Assembly (NCBI GenBank): GCA_934201705.1
Contig: CAKPXF010000001.1
Span: 66,783 to 130,782, forward strand
DNA length: 64,000 bases
Origin: an uncultured Bacilli bacterium
Lineage (GTDB): Bacteria > Bacillota_I > Bacilli_A > RFN20 > CAG-631
Direction of reading: 5' to 3'
Part shown: positions 1,562 to 50,866 of the stretch, piece by piece
How the letters are laid out: every line of letters begins with the position of its first letter
Numbering within the stretch: position 1 is the first letter of the stretch
Program-made: the position numbers and the translations under genes
Notes under the pieces: model-generated
Seen by the model: the letters and a program-made list of their open reading frames with translations, nothing else
What the model was told of the DNA's origin: nothing
The model's database searches: none

Positions 1562-3235
1562 TTAGTCCTTTCTTGTTGCTTGATATAATTTGTATTGATT
1601 TGTTAGCCATTCAATATAGTTAGAAGCTTGTGATCTATAATGTGTACAAGCATCAATCCATGTTTCGCTTGGATTTTTAGTTCCAGCCCATGCTTTAGTT
1701 GCACATTCAAGATAAATATATGCTTCAGCTGTTGTATAATCCTTTGATACTTGAGCACTAGCTCCATAGAATAACATACCATCAGTAGCGTTTTTCAAGC
1801 AATTATAATTTCTAACCTTTTCAATCCAATTTCTTTCAGTTTCTGTATATTGCATAGGAATTTTATATGAAATGTCATCATTGTGAATTAAAGCAAATAC
1901 ACCACTATATGGCTTATGAGTTACATAATAATCATCCGTATATTCATAATAGTTATCACCGAATGATGAATCCTTCCATTGCTCACCTTTAATACCATAA
2001 GCACAAAGCTCATAGTTATCTTTATTTGAATACATCCAATCTAAATATTCAATTATTAAAGGAGCTTTATTTGATTTTTTATTAATAATTAAGCAGTCTG
2101 TATTTTTAGATACTTCAGCAAAGGCACCACTATTTTCAACGACATTACCATTTTCATCAACTGCATCAAGAGGATCTAAAATTGTAAATTCTGCCTTTTC
2201 ATCAATTTCTTTACATTTTCTTGCAACATCAATTAAATTAGTAATTGTTGGATTTAAAAAATATACTGCAGATTTTCCAGCTGCTAAATTTGATAATCTT
2301 TGGTTGGCAGAAATAGTTGTATTATCTCTTTCCCAAAGGCCATCGTTTACCCAATCATATTCTTGTTGCAATACCTTACCATAATTTTCACTAATCCAGC
2401 CTGGGACAACTTCCTTAATAGTATTATCATCATTATAATTAACGGCTCTATATTGATATCCAGTCGACTTATAAGCCCCAGCTAAAAGAGTAAATTCCAT
2501 ATCATATACGGGCCCTGATAATGGTGTTGTACATGTTGAAATTTCACTTTTCATTTTACGAATCATTGTATCAAAATCTTTAATAGTTCTACACCAAGTT
2601 AAAGTGCCTTTTGAAGAATCAGCTTCTTCTTTACTTTCAGTATAGCCAACCTGTCTCATGAAATCTTTTCTAACTAGTACGCCTTTTTGTTTTGTAATAT
2701 TAACCGAAGGAATGCCAATTATTTCATCATTAAAATTAGTTACTGAATAAATTGAATCACCTAGTGCATTTAAAATGTTTTTGCCACCTTTTCTAAATGA
2801 AGCTGTTAAATCAAGGACAACATCTTGGCTTAATACTGTATCTTCAAGGCCTGCTTGACCTAAATAGCTAACAGCACAATCCCATGCACTAGACCCCATT
2901 ACTGGAGAAAAAGCATTGCTAAATGTTGAGTGAGATTCATATAAAATATTAAAATTAACGGCATTACCTGTATCTTCATAAAATTTCTTTTCAATAGCTT
3001 CCTTTACGACATTTTCATCAACACCTTTAACGTATGCTCCATAAACATTACTTTCGTCAACATAAATTGTAATTGTAACTCGATTGTTTTTAACATCCTC
3101 CCATGGTAATCTTTCATTAGATGATAAATGTTCATTAGACGTGTTAGAAGTTGAATTTGTAGAATCAGTAGTACCACCACATCCTGTGATTGCTAAGCAT
3201 GCTAATACCATTACTAATAATTTGCTTTTGTTCAT
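1562..3235 (-). CDS. Lipoprotein, extracellular solute-binding protein of a carbohydrate ABC transporter (LplA/YtcQ-like, family 1 SBP)
   Basis: 557 aa with a lipobox (LAITGCGG) and Ser/Thr-rich linker. Size and composition are typical of the large sugar SBPs encoded next to LplB/LplC-type permeases, and it sits directly upstream of two permease genes. Confidence 0.75.
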   Translation of the reverse strand: MNKSKLLVMVLACLAITGCGGTTDSTNSTSNTSNEHLSSNERLPWEDVKNNRVTITIYVDESNVYGAYVKGVDENVVKEAIEKKFYEDTGNAVNFNILYESHSTFSNAFSPVMGSSAWDCAVSYLGQAGLEDTVLSQDVVLDLTASFRKGGKNILNALGDSIYSVTNFNDEIIGIPSVNITKQKGVLVRKDFMRQVGYTESKEEADSSKGTLTWCRTIKDFDTMIRKMKSEISTCTTPLSGPVYDMEFTLLAGAYKSTGYQYRAVNYNDDNTIKEVVPGWISENYGKVLQQEYDWVNDGLWERDNTTISANQRLSNLAAGKSAVYFLNPTITNLIDVARKCKEIDEKAEFTILDPLDAVDENGNVVENSGAFAEVSKNTDCLIINKKSNKAPLIIEYLDWMYSNKDNYELCAYGIKGEQWKDSSFGDNYYEYTDDYYVTHKPYSGVFALIHNDDISYKIPMQYTETERNWIEKVRNYNCLKNATDGMLFYGASAQVSKDYTTAEAYIYLECATKAWAGTKNPSETWIDACTHYRSQASNYIEWLTNQYKLYQATRKD

Positions 3236-43762: not shown

Positions 43763-45784
<2,022 letters not shown>

Positions 45785-45785
45785 A

Positions 45786-45815
45786 AAGTGTTCAAAATCT
45801 GAACACTTTTTAACA
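45786..45815. terminator. Bidirectional hairpin terminator between ligA (+) and the HTH-TM regulator gene (-)
   Basis: aaagtgttc-aaaatct-gaacacttt flanked by A and T tracts. Confidence 0.6.
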
Positions 45816-47120
45816 TCAGTATAGGTATATTTTACTATCACCATATGGATTTTTTCCATTTTCCTTTCTAGTTAATGAATAAGCATATCCATCAATTACC
45901 TCTAGTTCAATAATGCTAACATTTTTATACTCAGGGAATGAAATCTTCGTTTCTTTTTCATTAGCAATTGTAACAGTAAGATTTGATTTTACTAAGGTAT
46001 TATTTGCATCTATATAAGAAAATGATATTCTTGCTAAAATATAATATTTTACAAAATAAAAACCATTCTTGTAGCTTATAGTAATGCCATTTTCCTTTTC
46101 ATTTAAAGAAAATCGTTCAAAAAATGTTTTTTTATCAATGCTATTTTTAACTATTTCATATGAATCAGAAGCCATATAGTAATTATCATTATCATAATTA
46201 ATGGTTTCATTATCATATTTTTCGCTAAATTTATTGTGCAAGCTTGTATCCTTATAAATGCTTAAAATGAAATTTCCATAGGCTTCTTTTTTTTCACCAT
46301 TTTTAGTGGTAAAGAAAACTAAAGGGTTAGTGTGTTCACTACTTATATAGCTAATACTTAAAATATAAGGATCTAACGATGTGTATAAATCTCTATTAAC
46401 ATTTAATGGCTTAAAGAAGTAAAACACATAGCTTTCCATAATACCGTCATTAATTTCTTTATATGATTCCTTTTCATCATAGCTTATTAAATATTTATTA
46501 TCACATTTTGTTTTAATTCCAGTATCTTCGTTATAATAATTAGCTTCAGGATACTTACATGGATAATATATATTAGTTATATATGGATTATTATTTAAAT
46601 AGTTAAATATTCTAGTAGCATATTGCTCAAAGGATTCTATATTATCAATAGTTGTTATATAATCCTCATCATCGTTATCATAATAAACATCATATTCCTT
46701 AGCGTTTAGCTTTTTATTAACTCTTGGCATATCTACTAATCCAATGTTCTTTAAATATTTCTCATTGAAATAGCCATTTTCTGTTATAATATTTTGCATT
46801 CTTTTATTATAAATTTGTAAGCAAATACAAGATGATAAAAGCATTATTGCAATAGATGAAATAATAATTATTAAAATAGTTTTTAATCTATTTATTTTAC
46901 GATTTTCCTTAATGTTTTTCTCAAGATCGTTGTAACTAAATAAATTATTTTCATCAATATTGAAAAGATTACAAATATCTTGTAATGATTCTTTATTTGG
47001 AATTCCCCTTCCTTGCTCCCATTTTGCAACTGCTGATCTTGAAATAGAAAGCTTTGAAGCAAGTTCATCTTGAGTTAAATTGGCATTTATGCGTAGCTCT
47101 TTTAATCTATCACAAAACAT
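45816..47120 (-). CDS. Membrane-tethered XRE-family transcriptional regulator: N-terminal HTH, single TM, ~320-aa extracytoplasmic domain
   Basis: The HTH_3 region is LKELRINANLTQDELASKLSISRSAVAKWEQGRGIPNKESLQDICNLFNID. The TM segment is LKTILIIIISSIAIMLLSSCICLQIY. A Tyr/Asn/Asp-rich C-terminal domain follows. Confidence 0.7.
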   Translation of the reverse strand: MFCDRLKELRINANLTQDELASKLSISRSAVAKWEQGRGIPNKESLQDICNLFNIDENNLFSYNDLEKNIKENRKINRLKTILIIIISSIAIMLLSSCICLQIYNKRMQNIITENGYFNEKYLKNIGLVDMPRVNKKLNAKEYDVYYDNDDEDYITTIDNIESFEQYATRIFNYLNNNPYITNIYYPCKYPEANYYNEDTGIKTKCDNKYLISYDEKESYKEINDGIMESYVFYFFKPLNVNRDLYTSLDPYILSISYISSEHTNPLVFFTTKNGEKKEAYGNFILSIYKDTSLHNKFSEKYDNETINYDNDNYYMASDSYEIVKNSIDKKTFFERFSLNEKENGITISYKNGFYFVKYYILARISFSYIDANNTLVKSNLTVTIANEKETKISFPEYKNVSIIELEVIDGYAYSLTRKENGKNPYGDSKIYLY

Positions 47121-47139
47121 ATAAATTTACTCCATTATG

Positions 47140-48354
47140 TTATCTATGTAATTTACTAATTTCTTTTTTCTTTTTTCTATATATTTTATTTTCTTTTAAA
47201 AATACAAGCTTTATTATAAACCAAAATAGAAATGTTAAAGCAAAGCCATATAAAATCCAACAATCATAATTTTTAAATGTATTGGCTATGCAGTTTGGTT
47301 GTATTAAAATAGCACCAATCAATAAAGATATCATTAAAAAGCAAATTGATTTTCCATAAAATGGCTTACTATTAAAAAATCCTATTATTGAATTAATTAA
47401 GGTAATTAATGAAGCTACAAGTGTTAATAGATAAAAAGAAGATATTGCATAAAAAGAAACTTGTACTCCTATATTATTAAAATTATTTATAAATGAAGAA
47501 ACAAATGGTAATGATGAAATTAAATAATCTCCATTTTCATTGACTAAATACTTAGATATTGTAGAAAAATCATTTGGTGAGTTAATCCACAATTTTATGC
47601 ATTCCTTACCAGTTATTATTGAATTTGTAGCTGTTTTATTTATTAGATTGAAAATAGTATTATAAACAGTATCTTTTGTTACAATAGGAACAAATAAGCA
47701 TACTAAAGCAATAGTGGCTACTAAAATTGTTTGTAGGAAAATAAAAATTCTTTTTCTTGGTAATAAAACGATTTCCCTTAAGTTATTACTAACTTCATTT
47801 TCAACAATATCATTGCTAGCTTTTACGATATCGTCATTTTCTTCATTAGAAATATTTTCTTCATTTATTATGCTTTGATCTTTAGTTTCAACTACATTTT
47901 TATTTTCATTTAATTTTTCAATATCATTTTCTTTAATTATTGTTGACTCTTTTTTATCTTCTATTTCATCATTGATTAATTCATTAGCATTTAATGGCTT
48001 ATTACAGCGTGTACAGGTTTTAAAGCGAGCATCTTGAATTTGCCCACAATAAGGACAAATGGTTTTATTAATCTTATTTCCACAGCTAGGACAAAATTGC
48101 TGTGAAATAAGGACCTTATTTCCACAATTATCACAATAAATTGATTTAATTGATTGACCTTCCTCTTTTTTTGTTAAAGCTTCCGTGTTTTGGTTTTCAT
48201 CTTTTTTTATTTCTTCCTTTTTAACCTCATTTTTAATAAAGCTATATTGACAGTTATTACAAGATTTAGCATCTAAAGGTAATAACGAATTACACTTAGG
48301 GCATTTTTTTACTGCAAGATATGGAAGATTTTGTTGATTATACAATCCGTGCAT
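47140..48354 (-). CDS. Triple zinc-ribbon (3 x CxxC...CxxC) protein fused to a C-terminal polytopic membrane domain; unknown function
   Basis: The three zinc ribbons are CPKCNSLLPLDAKSCNNCQY, CDNCGNKVLISQQFCPSCGNK and CPYCGQIQDARFKTCTRCNK. An acidic linker and ~5 TM helices follow. The gene sits 19 nt upstream of, and is likely co-transcribed with, the HTH-TM regulator gene. Confidence 0.65.
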   Translation of the reverse strand: MHGLYNQQNLPYLAVKKCPKCNSLLPLDAKSCNNCQYSFIKNEVKKEEIKKDENQNTEALTKKEEGQSIKSIYCDNCGNKVLISQQFCPSCGNKINKTICPYCGQIQDARFKTCTRCNKPLNANELINDEIEDKKESTIIKENDIEKLNENKNVVETKDQSIINEENISNEENDDIVKASNDIVENEVSNNLREIVLLPRKRIFIFLQTILVATIALVCLFVPIVTKDTVYNTIFNLINKTATNSIITGKECIKLWINSPNDFSTISKYLVNENGDYLISSLPFVSSFINNFNNIGVQVSFYAISSFYLLTLVASLITLINSIIGFFNSKPFYGKSICFLMISLLIGAILIQPNCIANTFKNYDCWILYGFALTFLFWFIIKLVFLKENKIYRKKKKEISKLHR

Positions 48355-48490
48355 ATTATCGCCTCCAATAATATAAATTATATCTTAAAAAACTTTTAAT
48401 AGCAATTAATATGGAAGAAAAATGTTGCATATAAAATATTTATATTTTAAGTTAAAGCCTAATATGATAAAATAACACCTGGTGATGAAT

Positions 48491-50866
48491 ATGGAAAAAA
48501 TAGAACTTTTAGCACCTGCTGGTAATTTAAATATTTTAAAGGCTGCAGTAGATAATGGTGCTGATGCAATTTATTTAGGTGGGGAAAATTTTTCGGCAAG
48601 AGCTTTTGCTGATAATTTTACAAATGAGGAAATAGTGGAAGGAATAAAATATGCTCATGTTAGAGGAGCTAAGGTATATGTTAGTATAAACACACTAGTT
48701 TATGATGATGAAATTAATGATGTTTTTAATTTTGCTGACTTTTTATATTTAAATGATGTTGATGCTTTAATAGTTGCTGATTTTGGCTTAATCAATGCTT
48801 TAAAAAATCGTTATCCTTCATTAGCAATTCATGTTTCAACACAGCTAAATACTCATAGCCTATGGCAAGTTAAATTACTTGAATCATTAAATGTTTCTCG
48901 TGTTATTTTAGCTCGTGAAACAGAATTATCAACAATTAAATATATAAAGCAAAACTCTTCTATGCCACTTGAGGTCTTTGCACATGGTGCTTTATGTGTT
49001 TGCTATTCTGGTAATTGCTTACAATCATCTTTAATTGGAAAACGTTCAGGAAATAGAGGAAAATGTGCACAACCATGTAGAATGCAATATACCTTACTTG
49101 AAAATAATAAAGCAGTTTCTAATAAGAAATTTTTACTTTCATTAAAGGATTTAAATACACTTGAGCATATAGATGAATTAATTGAAGCTAATGTTGCTTC
49201 TCTTAAAATAGAAGGTAGAATGAAAAGCGTTGAATATGTAGCTTTAGTAACAAAAACATATAGAGATGCTATTGATAATTATTATGCTAAAAAAATCAAC
49301 GAGGTTGATTATATAGCTGAAGATAAAATTAAAATGGTCTTTTCAAGAGGCTTTAGTAAAGGCTTTATGTTTAAAGAATTAAATGGTAATATTGCTCAAA
49401 CATATAGACCTTCACATATTGGTGAAAAAATTGGAAAGGTTATTGGGGTTAAGGATGATTTAGTACAAATAAAGCTTTCAAATACAATTCATCAAAAGGA
49501 TAAAATAGCTATTTTACAAGAAAGAGCCGATGACATAAAAATGTTTTTATCAAAAATTTATGTAAAGGGTAAATTAGTTCCATGCGGCTATAAGGATGAA
49601 ATTATTGAAATATCTATTAATTCTAAGGTAAGTAAGGATTCTATTGTTTATAAGATAGTTGATAATGCCTTAATGGAAGAAATAAATAATACCTATTTGA
49701 AAAATAAAAAGAAAGTTCCTATTAGAATGAAATTTATTTCTAATGTTAATGAATCAATGGCTTTAATAATAAAGGACAATAATTCTCATTCAATATTAGT
49801 TAAATCTGATTATGTTGTAGAAAAAGCTATTAATTCACCAACTAGTGATGAAAAAATAAAAGAGCAATTAAGTAAGGTTTTCTCTACAGCCTATGAAATA
49901 AAAGATATGGTTATAGTAAATGATAATCAAGGAATTATTCCAGTTAAATTTATTAATGATTTAAGACGTGAGGCTATAAGTAAATTAGATGAAGCAAGAG
50001 AAAAGACTTATAATAGATCACTTGATGATATTAATACTGAAATTGATTATTTGCCTAAAGTTAAAAATCAAAGCCAACAATTAAAGGTTAAGGTTCATAC
50101 CTTATTTCAGCTTGATGCTATAGCAAATCTTGAAGGAATTAGTGCAATTTATTATGATGATATGCTAACATATTCAATAGCTAAAAATAAATATCCTCAT
50201 TTAAATTTAATTTTAGTATTACCTCGTATTAATAATGATAGAAGTAAAATAGAAATAGATTCTCCTGTCTATGTATGTAATAACTATGGTGATTTATTAA
50301 AGCATGATAATGCTAGATTAATTACTGATATGTATATGAATGTTACTAATAAGCTAACAATTGCTAGCTTATTAAAGCTAAATGTTGAAACAATTACTAT
50401 TTCTTGTGAAATGAATCATTTACAAATTAAAGAGCTTGTTAATGACTTTAAAGAAGATTATGGCTTTATTCCTCCTCTTGAAATGGTCGTTTATGGTCAT
50501 TATCAAACAATGATTACAAAATATTGCTTTATAAGCAATGAATATGGATTTAGTAAAACACACTGTGGTGCTTGTAAAAACAAAAATTTAGCACTTCTTG
50601 ATAGAATGAATTATATTTTTCCAATTACTACTGATAATAATTGTAATGTTACAATTTATAATTCAAAGGCAACTCATTTAATTTCCTATTTAGATGAAAT
50701 TTATGATATGGGTATTAATTCATTAAGGCTTGATTTTTCAATTGAAAATCCTCAAGAGGTATATGATATTACAAAAGCATATTTAGATATGATTAAATAT
50801 CATGATTATGACTTATCATTAAATGATGTAACATATGCTTATTTTCTAGATTCAACTAAAAACTAA
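48491..50866 (+). CDS. Peptidase U32 family protein (collagenase-like/PrtC-type), long form
   Basis: U32 N-terminal signature LELLAPAGNLNILKAAVDNGADAIYLGG and the conserved Cys-containing region E..AHGALCVCYSGNC. The start is set at ATG 48491 with a GGTGA RBS. Confidence 0.8.
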   Translation: MEKIELLAPAGNLNILKAAVDNGADAIYLGGENFSARAFADNFTNEEIVEGIKYAHVRGAKVYVSINTLVYDDEINDVFNFADFLYLNDVDALIVADFGLINALKNRYPSLAIHVSTQLNTHSLWQVKLLESLNVSRVILARETELSTIKYIKQNSSMPLEVFAHGALCVCYSGNCLQSSLIGKRSGNRGKCAQPCRMQYTLLENNKAVSNKKFLLSLKDLNTLEHIDELIEANVASLKIEGRMKSVEYVALVTKTYRDAIDNYYAKKINEVDYIAEDKIKMVFSRGFSKGFMFKELNGNIAQTYRPSHIGEKIGKVIGVKDDLVQIKLSNTIHQKDKIAILQERADDIKMFLSKIYVKGKLVPCGYKDEIIEISINSKVSKDSIVYKIVDNALMEEINNTYLKNKKKVPIRMKFISNVNESMALIIKDNNSHSILVKSDYVVEKAINSPTSDEKIKEQLSKVFSTAYEIKDMVIVNDNQGIIPVKFINDLRREAISKLDEAREKTYNRSLDDINTEIDYLPKVKNQSQQLKVKVHTLFQLDAIANLEGISAIYYDDMLTYSIAKNKYPHLNLILVLPRINNDRSKIEIDSPVYVCNNYGDLLKHDNARLITDMYMNVTNKLTIASLLKLNVETITISCEMNHLQIKELVNDFKEDYGFIPPLEMVVYGHYQTMITKYCFISNEYGFSKTHCGACKNKNLALLDRMNYIFPITTDNNCNVTIYNSKATHLISYLDEIYDMGINSLRLDFSIENPQEVYDITKAYLDMIKYHDYDLSLNDVTYAYFLDSTKN

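Follow-up and report, generated by a model that had tools for sequence, protein, structure and literature searches.

A zinc-ribbon membrane protein gene and a membrane-anchored XRE-type regulator gene at one locus of Candidatus Caccosoma: probably two independent genes paired in a single genus

We analyzed two adjacent minus-strand open reading frames (ORFs) located in a 64,000-nucleotide stretch of DNA from an uncultured Bacilli bacterium (GenBank assembly GCA_934201705.1, contig CAKPXF010000001.1, positions 66,783 to 130,782 of the forward strand; hereafter the window), which has a G+C content of ~27%. The upstream ORF encodes a zinc-ribbon membrane protein, referred to here as ZnR, and the downstream ORF encodes a membrane-anchored protein with an XRE-type helix-turn-helix (HTH) domain, referred to here as the XRE protein. 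Identical or near-identical ZnR and XRE proteins are present on long metagenome contigs, and relatives named Candidatus Caccosoma sp. by NCBI encode XRE and ZnR proteins that are 82% and 75% identical, respectively. Caccosoma corresponds to the GTDB genus CAG-631 of the order RFN20, within the uncultured gut Bacilli (PMC8035907). An earlier reading of the sequence (the original prediction) had proposed that the pairing of the two genes constitutes a transmembrane signaling or sequestration module. Our analysis favors, with a probability of about 0.6, a different reading: ZnR and the XRE gene would have separate evolutionary histories and share a transcript in Candidatus Caccosoma alone, where a one-component regulator was relocated behind ZnR.

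Architecture and predicted transcription of the two genes

Both ORFs were recovered as predicted, together with the 19-nt gap that separates them, the three CxxC...CxxC ribbons and the acidic linker, on the basis of ORF coordinates, Pfam matches and Cys positions (Table 1). ZnR is matched by Zn_ribbon_3 (PF13248) over three stretches (E-value = 1.8e-10; 40.4 bits, gathering threshold 27) and by DZR (PF12773; E-value = 2.9e-10; 40.6 bits, gathering threshold 27.3). Both scores exceed the gathering thresholds and the Cys quartets (C18/21-C32/35, C74/77-C88/91, and C100/103-C114/117) are conserved, as is characteristic of double zinc ribbons, with 12/12 Cys residues invariant in an alignment of 11 family members. 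The linker that follows contains 22 D/E and 8 K/R residues and is disordered in the AlphaFold2 (AF2) model, with a predicted local distance difference test (pLDDT) score below 50. The membrane domain had been predicted to contain approximately five transmembrane (TM) helices; instead, four were identified both by hydropathy (residues 201-230, 295-328, 331-358, and 363-388) and in the AF2 model (residues 198-221, 295-327, 335-359, and 366-403). By the positive-inside rule, the TM1-TM2 loop of ~70 amino acids is outside and both termini are in the cytoplasm, because an RKR motif precedes TM1 and a KKKK tail follows TM4. Known families cover only the ribbons of ZnR, and its membrane domain has no Pfam, NCBIfam or PDB match. 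Other zinc-ribbon (DZR/Zn_ribbon_3) membrane proteins of Firmicutes and archaea likewise combine cytoplasmic CxxC...CxxC ribbons, a linker and TM helices, with no function known; ZnR differs from them in having three ribbons, an invariant N-terminal MHGLYxQxNLPYL motif and a 4-TM domain with few relatives.

The XRE protein was predicted to consist of an XRE HTH, one TM helix and a Tyr/Asn-rich extracytoplasmic domain of ~320 amino acids, and the HTH_3 match and hydropathy profile agree with this description. HTH_3 (PF01381) matches residues 6-57 (E-value = 9.2e-14; 51.7 bits, cut-off 23) and is found in 17/17 members of the XRE family, and the domain has the five-helix lambda-repressor-like fold. 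A single hydropathic segment (residues 76-105, peak 2.78) lies within one unbroken AF2 helix that spans residues 63-107, and five K/R residues at positions 66-79 place the basic residues on the HTH side of the membrane. The regulator is thus tethered to the membrane, as had been proposed, by its own TM helix. The ectodomain comprises 329 amino acids, of which 12.2% are Tyr and 11.6% Asn (5.4 and 8.2%, respectively, in the other proteins of the window), and its AF2 model, which is of fair confidence (mean pLDDT = 79.7), shows an alpha/beta subdomain (residues ~111-235) and, after it, an all-beta subdomain (residues ~252-418). The ectodomain had no Pfam match in any of the 17 family members, a search for a PDB analogue found none, and a search with the ectodomain alone retrieved five clusters among 1.84 billion representatives at an E-value ≤1e-3. 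The conserved residues of this domain are hydrophobic or aromatic (L123, Y167, I181, Y231, and Y315), which fits a binding domain better than an enzyme. Most likely, the ectodomain binds an extracellular cue, which may be specific to the gut.

By its architecture, the XRE protein is a single-pass transmembrane transcription regulator (TTR), i.e., a one-component sensor of a typical and widespread kind. It has a predicted DNA-binding domain on the cytoplasmic side and a TM region, in agreement with a survey of 50,302 TTRs from 11,337 genomes, which defines a TTR by a DNA-binding domain and one or more TM regions (PMC10269533). Among the surveyed proteins, HTH domains and single-pass topologies predominate, and ~57% of TTRs have no recognizable sensor domain (PMC10269533), a trait that the XRE protein shares with this majority. 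The N-terminal cytoplasmic DNA-binding domain, TM anchor and external C-terminal part are shared with ToxR, CadC, TcpP and the Enterococcus protein BcrR, the last of which also has an XRE-type HTH and is among the TTRs listed in the survey (PMC10269533). Compared with known TTRs, the ectodomain of the XRE protein is an orphan fold that lacks a Pfam or PDB match. In addition, ToxR and CadC have an OmpR winged-helix, whereas the XRE protein has a Cro/C1-type HTH. The architecture also sets it apart from BcrR, a protein of ~200 amino acids that combines an XRE HTH with four TM helices and is encoded beside bcrABD, while the XRE protein has one TM helix and a 329-amino acid ectodomain and no adjacent ABC transporter.

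As originally predicted, neither protein has an assigned function. No family beyond the HTH was found on the XRE protein in Pfam or NCBIfam, PDB sequence profile searches with both proteins gave matches only at the level of the HTH and the ribbons, and analysis with PADLOC and PHROGs likewise matched nothing but the HTH and the ribbons and revealed no link to defense systems or phages. No paralogue of either protein was found in the window.

Regarding transcription, the promoter upstream of ZnR is the top promoter-like site in 45600-48700 (10/12), and the only terminator-like hairpin on the minus strand of the region follows the stop codon of the XRE gene, with none between the two genes. Promoter-like sites inside ZnR, from which the XRE gene could be transcribed, were no commoner than in shuffled sequences (25 vs. 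26.3). With one promoter, two ribosome-binding sites (RBSs) and one terminator, ZnR and the XRE gene are predicted to form an operon in this genus, in line with the original prediction, and no other gene is included in it. Rfam and tRNA scans found nothing near the locus. Between alleles, purifying selection acts on both genes, with a ratio of non-synonymous to synonymous substitution rates (dN/dS) of 0.14-0.29, which indicates that both are real genes.

Table 1. Features of the ZnR-XRE locus (positions in the window)
Feature	Position	Strand	Description
ZnR gene	47140..48354	-	404 aa; three cytoplasmic zinc ribbons, acidic disordered linker and 4-TM helical bundle; ORF, Pfam, family alignment, AF2, dN/dS 0.26-0.29
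Three CxxC...CxxC zinc ribbons	48004..48303	-	ZnR residues 18-35, 74-91, 100-117; Cys positions
Acidic, Asn-rich linker	47764..47994	-	ZnR residues 121-197; fastest-evolving part of ZnR
Tetraspan membrane domain	47191..47763	-	ZnR residues 198-388; TM1, ~70-aa outside loop, TM2-TM4, followed by a Lys-rich cytoplasmic tail
XRE-type transmembrane transcription regulator gene	45816..47120	-	434 aa; ORF, HTH_3, AF2 mean pLDDT 79.7, dN/dS 0.14-0.15
Cro/C1-type HTH	46935..47111	-	XRE residues 4-62; recognition helix SRSAVAKWEQG
Single TM helix	46815..46883	-	XRE residues 80-102; basic juxtamembrane stretch on the N-terminal side
Extracytoplasmic orphan domain	45819..46814	-	XRE residues 103-434; alpha/beta N-subdomain and all-beta C-subdomain, Tyr-rich; AF2
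Putative sigma-70-type operon promoter	48377..48405	-	-35 TTGCTA (48405-48400), 17-nt spacer, -10 TATAAT (48382-48377)
Putative RBS of ZnR	48362..48366	-	GGAGG, 7 nt upstream of the start codon (ATG, 48354); read from sequence
Intergenic spacer	47121..47139	-	19 nt; RBS GGAG (47133-47130) ahead of the XRE ATG; no promoter, terminator or operator
Putative bidirectional terminator hairpin	45782..45812		13-bp stem, 5-nt loop, T-runs on both sides; common to the XRE gene and convergent ligA

Distribution of ZnR and of the XRE gene in other lineages

The adjacency of ZnR and the XRE gene is constant in the Caccosoma alleles seen (contigs L001, L015, and L061-L063). Full-length ZnR homologues (28-35% identical) without the XRE gene were identified in four lineages outside Caccosoma. 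In the first of these (L004/L005), ZnR lies between a U32 peptidase family gene (70% identical) and a convergent ligA (80% identical), with 35 nt separating the stop codons of ZnR and ligA. In the second (L009), ZnR is likewise followed by convergent ligA; in the third (L003), the gene order is U32, ZnR, a 109-amino acid gene and PFK; and in the fourth (L016), U32 and ZnR are followed by other genes. The divergent U32 gene is therefore kept in three of the four lineages, and ligA directly follows ZnR in two. Even where the XRE gene is absent, the ZnR promoter (the -10 TATAAT and ATTG of the -35 hexamer) aligns across these lineages, indicating that this promoter is older than the pairing. Taken together, ZnR holds a conserved syntenic slot that runs from the divergent U32 gene to the convergent ligA, with the XRE gene as an addition in Caccosoma.

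All 12 Cys residues, the MHGLYxQxNLPYL motif and a WFIxKxVFxKE motif in TM4 are retained in ZnR across these four lineages (L003, L004, L009, and L016). Overall, ZnR is only 28-37% identical to its homologues in the same lineages, where the U32 proteins are 63-70% and LigA 80% identical. A scan of genome contigs with the ZnR alignment retrieved two full-length relatives, the other 44 matches being partial and restricted to the zinc-ribbon region; the one partial match inspected (L018) lay in an unrelated protein of 380 amino acids, where it covered two C-terminal ribbons. A profile search with the membrane domain alone found no further relatives. ZnR is thus a fast-evolving membrane protein confined to a small clade comprising a handful of uncultured Bacilli lineages.

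Conversely, eight stand-alone XRE homologues (L006, L007, L010, L012, L064, L066, L069, and L070) were identified without any ZnR, including the closest relatives by ectodomain (P0070 and P0064; 28-31% identical). These genes are preceded by upstream gaps of 120-580 nt and reside in unrelated neighborhoods, which include TrkHA, a formate/nitrite transporter, a GGDEF protein, cobW/HypA, and an AAA/RloB defense-like cluster. We also scanned metagenomes with the XRE family alignment and, from >457 matches, took 80 loci (L067-L146) that belong to the HTH clade of the XRE protein. Among the loci listed, ZnR or any other zinc-ribbon membrane ORF was present within the 3-kb flanks in only two of 80, both from Caccosoma, and the 78 further loci had no zinc-ribbon neighbor.

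The ZnR-XRE pair is not a conserved module. The proposal that the pairing forms a signaling or sequestration module consequently finds no backing outside Caccosoma, neither in the four ZnR lineages nor in the eight stand-alone XRE homologues or the 78 further clade loci. Two neighborhood patterns had been named in advance as contrary to such a module: absence of co-conservation elsewhere, which is what we found, and the occurrence of ZnR homologues in unrelated contexts, which we did not find, as ZnR keeps its conserved slot.

It should be noted that the HTH clade to which the XRE protein belongs is large in gut metagenomes (>457 matches). Across the 80 loci its members share the N-terminal signature M(E)FxxKLKELR...SRSAVAKWE, and their C-terminal parts are diverse. 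Thirteen loci encode proteins with one TM helix and a large ectodomain, 18 encode short proteins with one TM helix, 28 encode polytopic proteins of ~200 amino acids with a BcrR-like architecture, and 16 encode soluble proteins (~190 amino acids); the remaining five are cut by a contig end. The same clade that includes the XRE protein therefore also holds many proteins with the architecture of BcrR.

A candidate operator of the XRE subfamily

The XRE protein of the window belongs to a subfamily with the sequence 'WEQGRG'. Upstream of 8/8 stand-alone members of this subfamily examined, the half-site GTATCR occurs twice in direct orientation with a period of 11 bp, forming the tandem repeat GTATCR-N5-GTATCR (L006, 4958-4974; L010, 4935-4951; L064, 7935-7951; L066, 7934-7950; and also in L007, L012, L069, and L070). 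The repeat is located 45-53 nt ahead of the start codon, and a -10-like hexamer is found 21-22 nt downstream of it in 7/8 cases by script; in L070, the hexamer TATATT was read by eye at 21 nt. The promoter-proximal half-site occupies the -35 position, where no TTGACA-like hexamer is present. Upstream of members of the 'WENG' subfamily, GTATCR half-sites occur at chance frequency and are essentially absent.

GTATCR-N5-GTATCR is probably an autoregulatory operator of the 'WEQGRG' subfamily. The arrangement of the half-sites suggests that these proteins would bind the repeat head-to-tail, as a dimer or oligomer, and regulate their own expression, probably by activation rather than repression because the -35 hexamer is missing. 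Residues R28, S29, A30, A32, K33, W34, and E35 of the recognition helix, together with Q17, are invariant in the XRE family, including the protein of the window.

No GTATCR half-site was found anywhere in 45700-48600, and an operator matrix run over the 64-kb window reached a best score of 12.6, which equals the level of shuffled sequences, compared with 24.5-28.1 for true sites. Lacking an operator and a promoter of its own, the Caccosoma XRE gene would depend on the ZnR promoter. If specificity has been retained, the targets of the XRE protein are expected to lie outside the window. In comparison with known TTRs, the subfamily stands out by a candidate operator in which tandem direct repeats take the place of the -35 hexamer, and the Caccosoma copy by having neither promoter nor operator of its own. 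The candidate operator allows targets to be predicted for regulators without other annotation in uncultured gut Bacilli.

Divergence of the block and readings of the pairing

To describe variation at the locus within the genus, the alleles of the window were compared with those of Caccosoma contigs L015 and L061. The ZnR-XRE block forms a divergence island (window, 45700-48100; L015, 8001-10541; L061, 5493-8033), with a sliding identity that drops from ~48100, within ZnR, to ~45700, at the 3' end of ligA. The adjacent flanking genes (U32, MFS, LigA, PcrA, PlsX, metallophosphatase, and Mrp) have an amino acid identity of 98-99.6%, a synonymous divergence (dS) of 0.04-0.10 and a dN/dS of 0.016-0.13. 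The corresponding values are 79-84%, 0.32-0.52, and 0.26-0.29 for the ZnR alleles and 83%, 0.59, and 0.14-0.15 for the XRE alleles. Further out, RNase III has a dS of 0.27 relative to L061. Mosaic breakpoints are present in the block, as L015 is 94-100% identical over the ZnR-XRE junction and divergent on either side, indicating that ZnR and the XRE gene are not inherited as a strict unit.

The structured domains of both proteins have a dN/dS of 0.06-0.28 and the ZnR linker, with an amino acid identity of 36-51% between Caccosoma alleles, is alone relaxed (0.54-0.68); for this reason, positive selection was rejected as the cause of the island. Instead, the island reflects the import or the long-term maintenance of old alleles through recombination, under purifying selection. 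Within it, evolution is fastest in the linker of ZnR and in the C-terminal half of the XRE ectodomain. Such islands of recombination and divergence in otherwise near-identical genomes are frequent among genes for surface-exposed proteins.

In the reading that we favor, ZnR would be an old resident of the locus, transcribed from its own conserved promoter between the divergent U32 peptidase family gene and the convergent ligA. The ancestral XRE gene would have had its own promoter, in which GTATCR-N5-GTATCR filled the -35 position. In the ancestor of Caccosoma, this regulator gene would have come between ZnR and ligA and lost its promoter and operator, its expression now being driven from the ZnR promoter. 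The regulator itself would face the cytoplasm with its HTH, be anchored by its TM helix and sense an outside cue with its ectodomain. Since its DNA-contacting residues are unchanged, it should act on GTATCR repeats elsewhere in the genome. The distribution of both genes suggests that the rearrangement was a gain in Caccosoma and not a loss elsewhere, and the placement of the XRE gene behind ZnR is either a lineage-specific accident or a recent recruitment. More generally, operon adjacency that is confined to a single genus says little in favor of a module: at this locus, synteny points to ZnR as old and to the regulator as a newcomer.

Four points weigh against this reading. The 19-nt spacing, the one promoter and the one terminator are kept in every Caccosoma allele seen; both genes fall within one divergence island and their linkage is stable in the genus; loss of the XRE gene in other lineages is an alternative to its gain in Caccosoma; and no target operator was found in the 64 kb of the genome that were searched.

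The tight operon and the shared island are also what would be expected if ZnR had been recruited in Caccosoma as the partner of the regulator, forming a co-component module specific to the genus, which we consider unlikely and yet the best placed of the alternatives. Contacts between TM helices would then allow ZnR to hold or release the regulator, in the manner of the polytopic permease LysP and CadC, or ZnR would shield the regulator from proteolysis like ToxS and TcpH. The cytoplasmic zinc ribbons would respond to a further input, e.g., zinc, redox or a bound macromolecule. That membrane regulators have partners is a known principle (PMC10269533), and a regulator without its own promoter and operator would have a dosage that tracks ZnR. 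In ToxR-ToxS, TcpP-TcpH, VtrA-VtrC and CadC-LysP, as in ZnR-XRE, a second membrane protein is encoded adjacent to the membrane regulator, and the 19-nt gap, single promoter and single terminator of ZnR-XRE correspond to an adjacent, co-transcribed partner gene. However, known partners are co-conserved with their regulators and are mostly single-pass proteins with a lipocalin-like periplasmic domain, whereas ZnR is encoded upstream, is mostly cytoplasmic and tetraspan, and lacks the lipocalin-like extracytoplasmic domain found in the ToxRS, TcpPH and VtrAC systems. Co-conservation of ZnR with the regulator across lineages was not observed, as it stops at one genus; ZnR predates the pairing and has the same promoter where the XRE gene is absent; and the recombination breakpoints lie within the block.

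A more elaborate form of this idea, to which we give still less credence, is a two-input membrane transcription switch, formed after the ZnR transcription unit captured the regulator, in which ZnR docks the TM helix of the regulator and couples the cytoplasmic input of the zinc ribbons (zinc, redox state, or a bound protein or nucleic acid) to the extracellular input of the ectodomain. Such a switch would be built from parts unseen in any described co-component system, and the allelic divergence of the block would mirror co-adapted pairs of alleles.

Leaving the role of ZnR aside, the XRE protein could be released by proteolysis, which ranks lower again in our assessment. The membrane form would be inactive, and a signal received by the ectodomain would trigger site-1 and site-2 cleavage and free the HTH to act on DNA. 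Regulated intramembrane proteolysis of this type operates on anti-sigma factors and in the degradation of TcpP. This process is documented for TTRs (PMC10269533) and would be compatible with a single-pass type II architecture and with the long continuous juxtamembrane/TM helix (residues 63-107). A weak match to Pfam Sigma_reg_N over the TM region also points in this direction, but its E-value of 0.005 is below the cut-off and the match spans only the hydrophobic helix. Moreover, no protease gene is linked to the XRE gene at the loci examined. Characterized HTH-type TTRs such as BcrR act while in the membrane, and we infer that the XRE protein likewise binds DNA in its membrane-bound form.

Two further candidates were rejected. 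A RodZ-like morphogenetic protein, with the HTH bound to the cytoskeletal protein MreB instead of DNA and the ectodomain in contact with the cell-wall machinery, would share with the XRE protein the succession of an HTH, a TM helix and an extracellular domain, but is highly improbable given the sub-threshold match to HTH_25 (E-value = 0.25; 11.6 bits, cut-off 24.6) compared with HTH_3 (E-value = 9e-14), the absence of DUF4115 from the window protein and from all 17 relatives, and the conserved DNA repeat at a fixed promoter position in 8/8 stand-alone relatives, which argues for DNA binding. The analogy with anti-sigma/sigma pairs (ZAS or RsgI-like systems) does not hold either, as the operon lacks a sigma factor gene; the models that match ZnR are all generic zinc-ribbon ones, its Cys residues follow a CxxC...CxxC and not an HxxxCxxC pattern, and no RsgI_N domain is present.

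Additional observations were made at the locus and on a related contig. The divergent intergenic region between U32 and ZnR contains an AT-rich palindrome, TTAAAATA-N-TATTTTAA, at window positions 48429-48449, which is also present in L004 (~3117-3135), a lineage with only 70% U32 identity. This palindrome could be a regulator site or a chance occurrence in AT-rich DNA. A conserved box, GTGTWATTTTATCATAT, at window positions 48455-48475, adjoins the start of U32 and is common to lineages with and without the XRE gene; most likely, it belongs to the divergent U32 promoter as its -10 region (plus strand, TATGATAAAAT) and is not a site for the XRE protein. Finally, in the Caccosoma-like contig L075 (1-3614), a ZnR that is 95% identical is followed by a soluble XRE protein of 67 amino acids, of which the first 38 residues equal those of the window protein, and then by an overlapping RNB/RNase R-like gene of 766 amino acids; the coverage of this contig is 1.24, and a chimeric assembly is possible instead of a real rearrangement.

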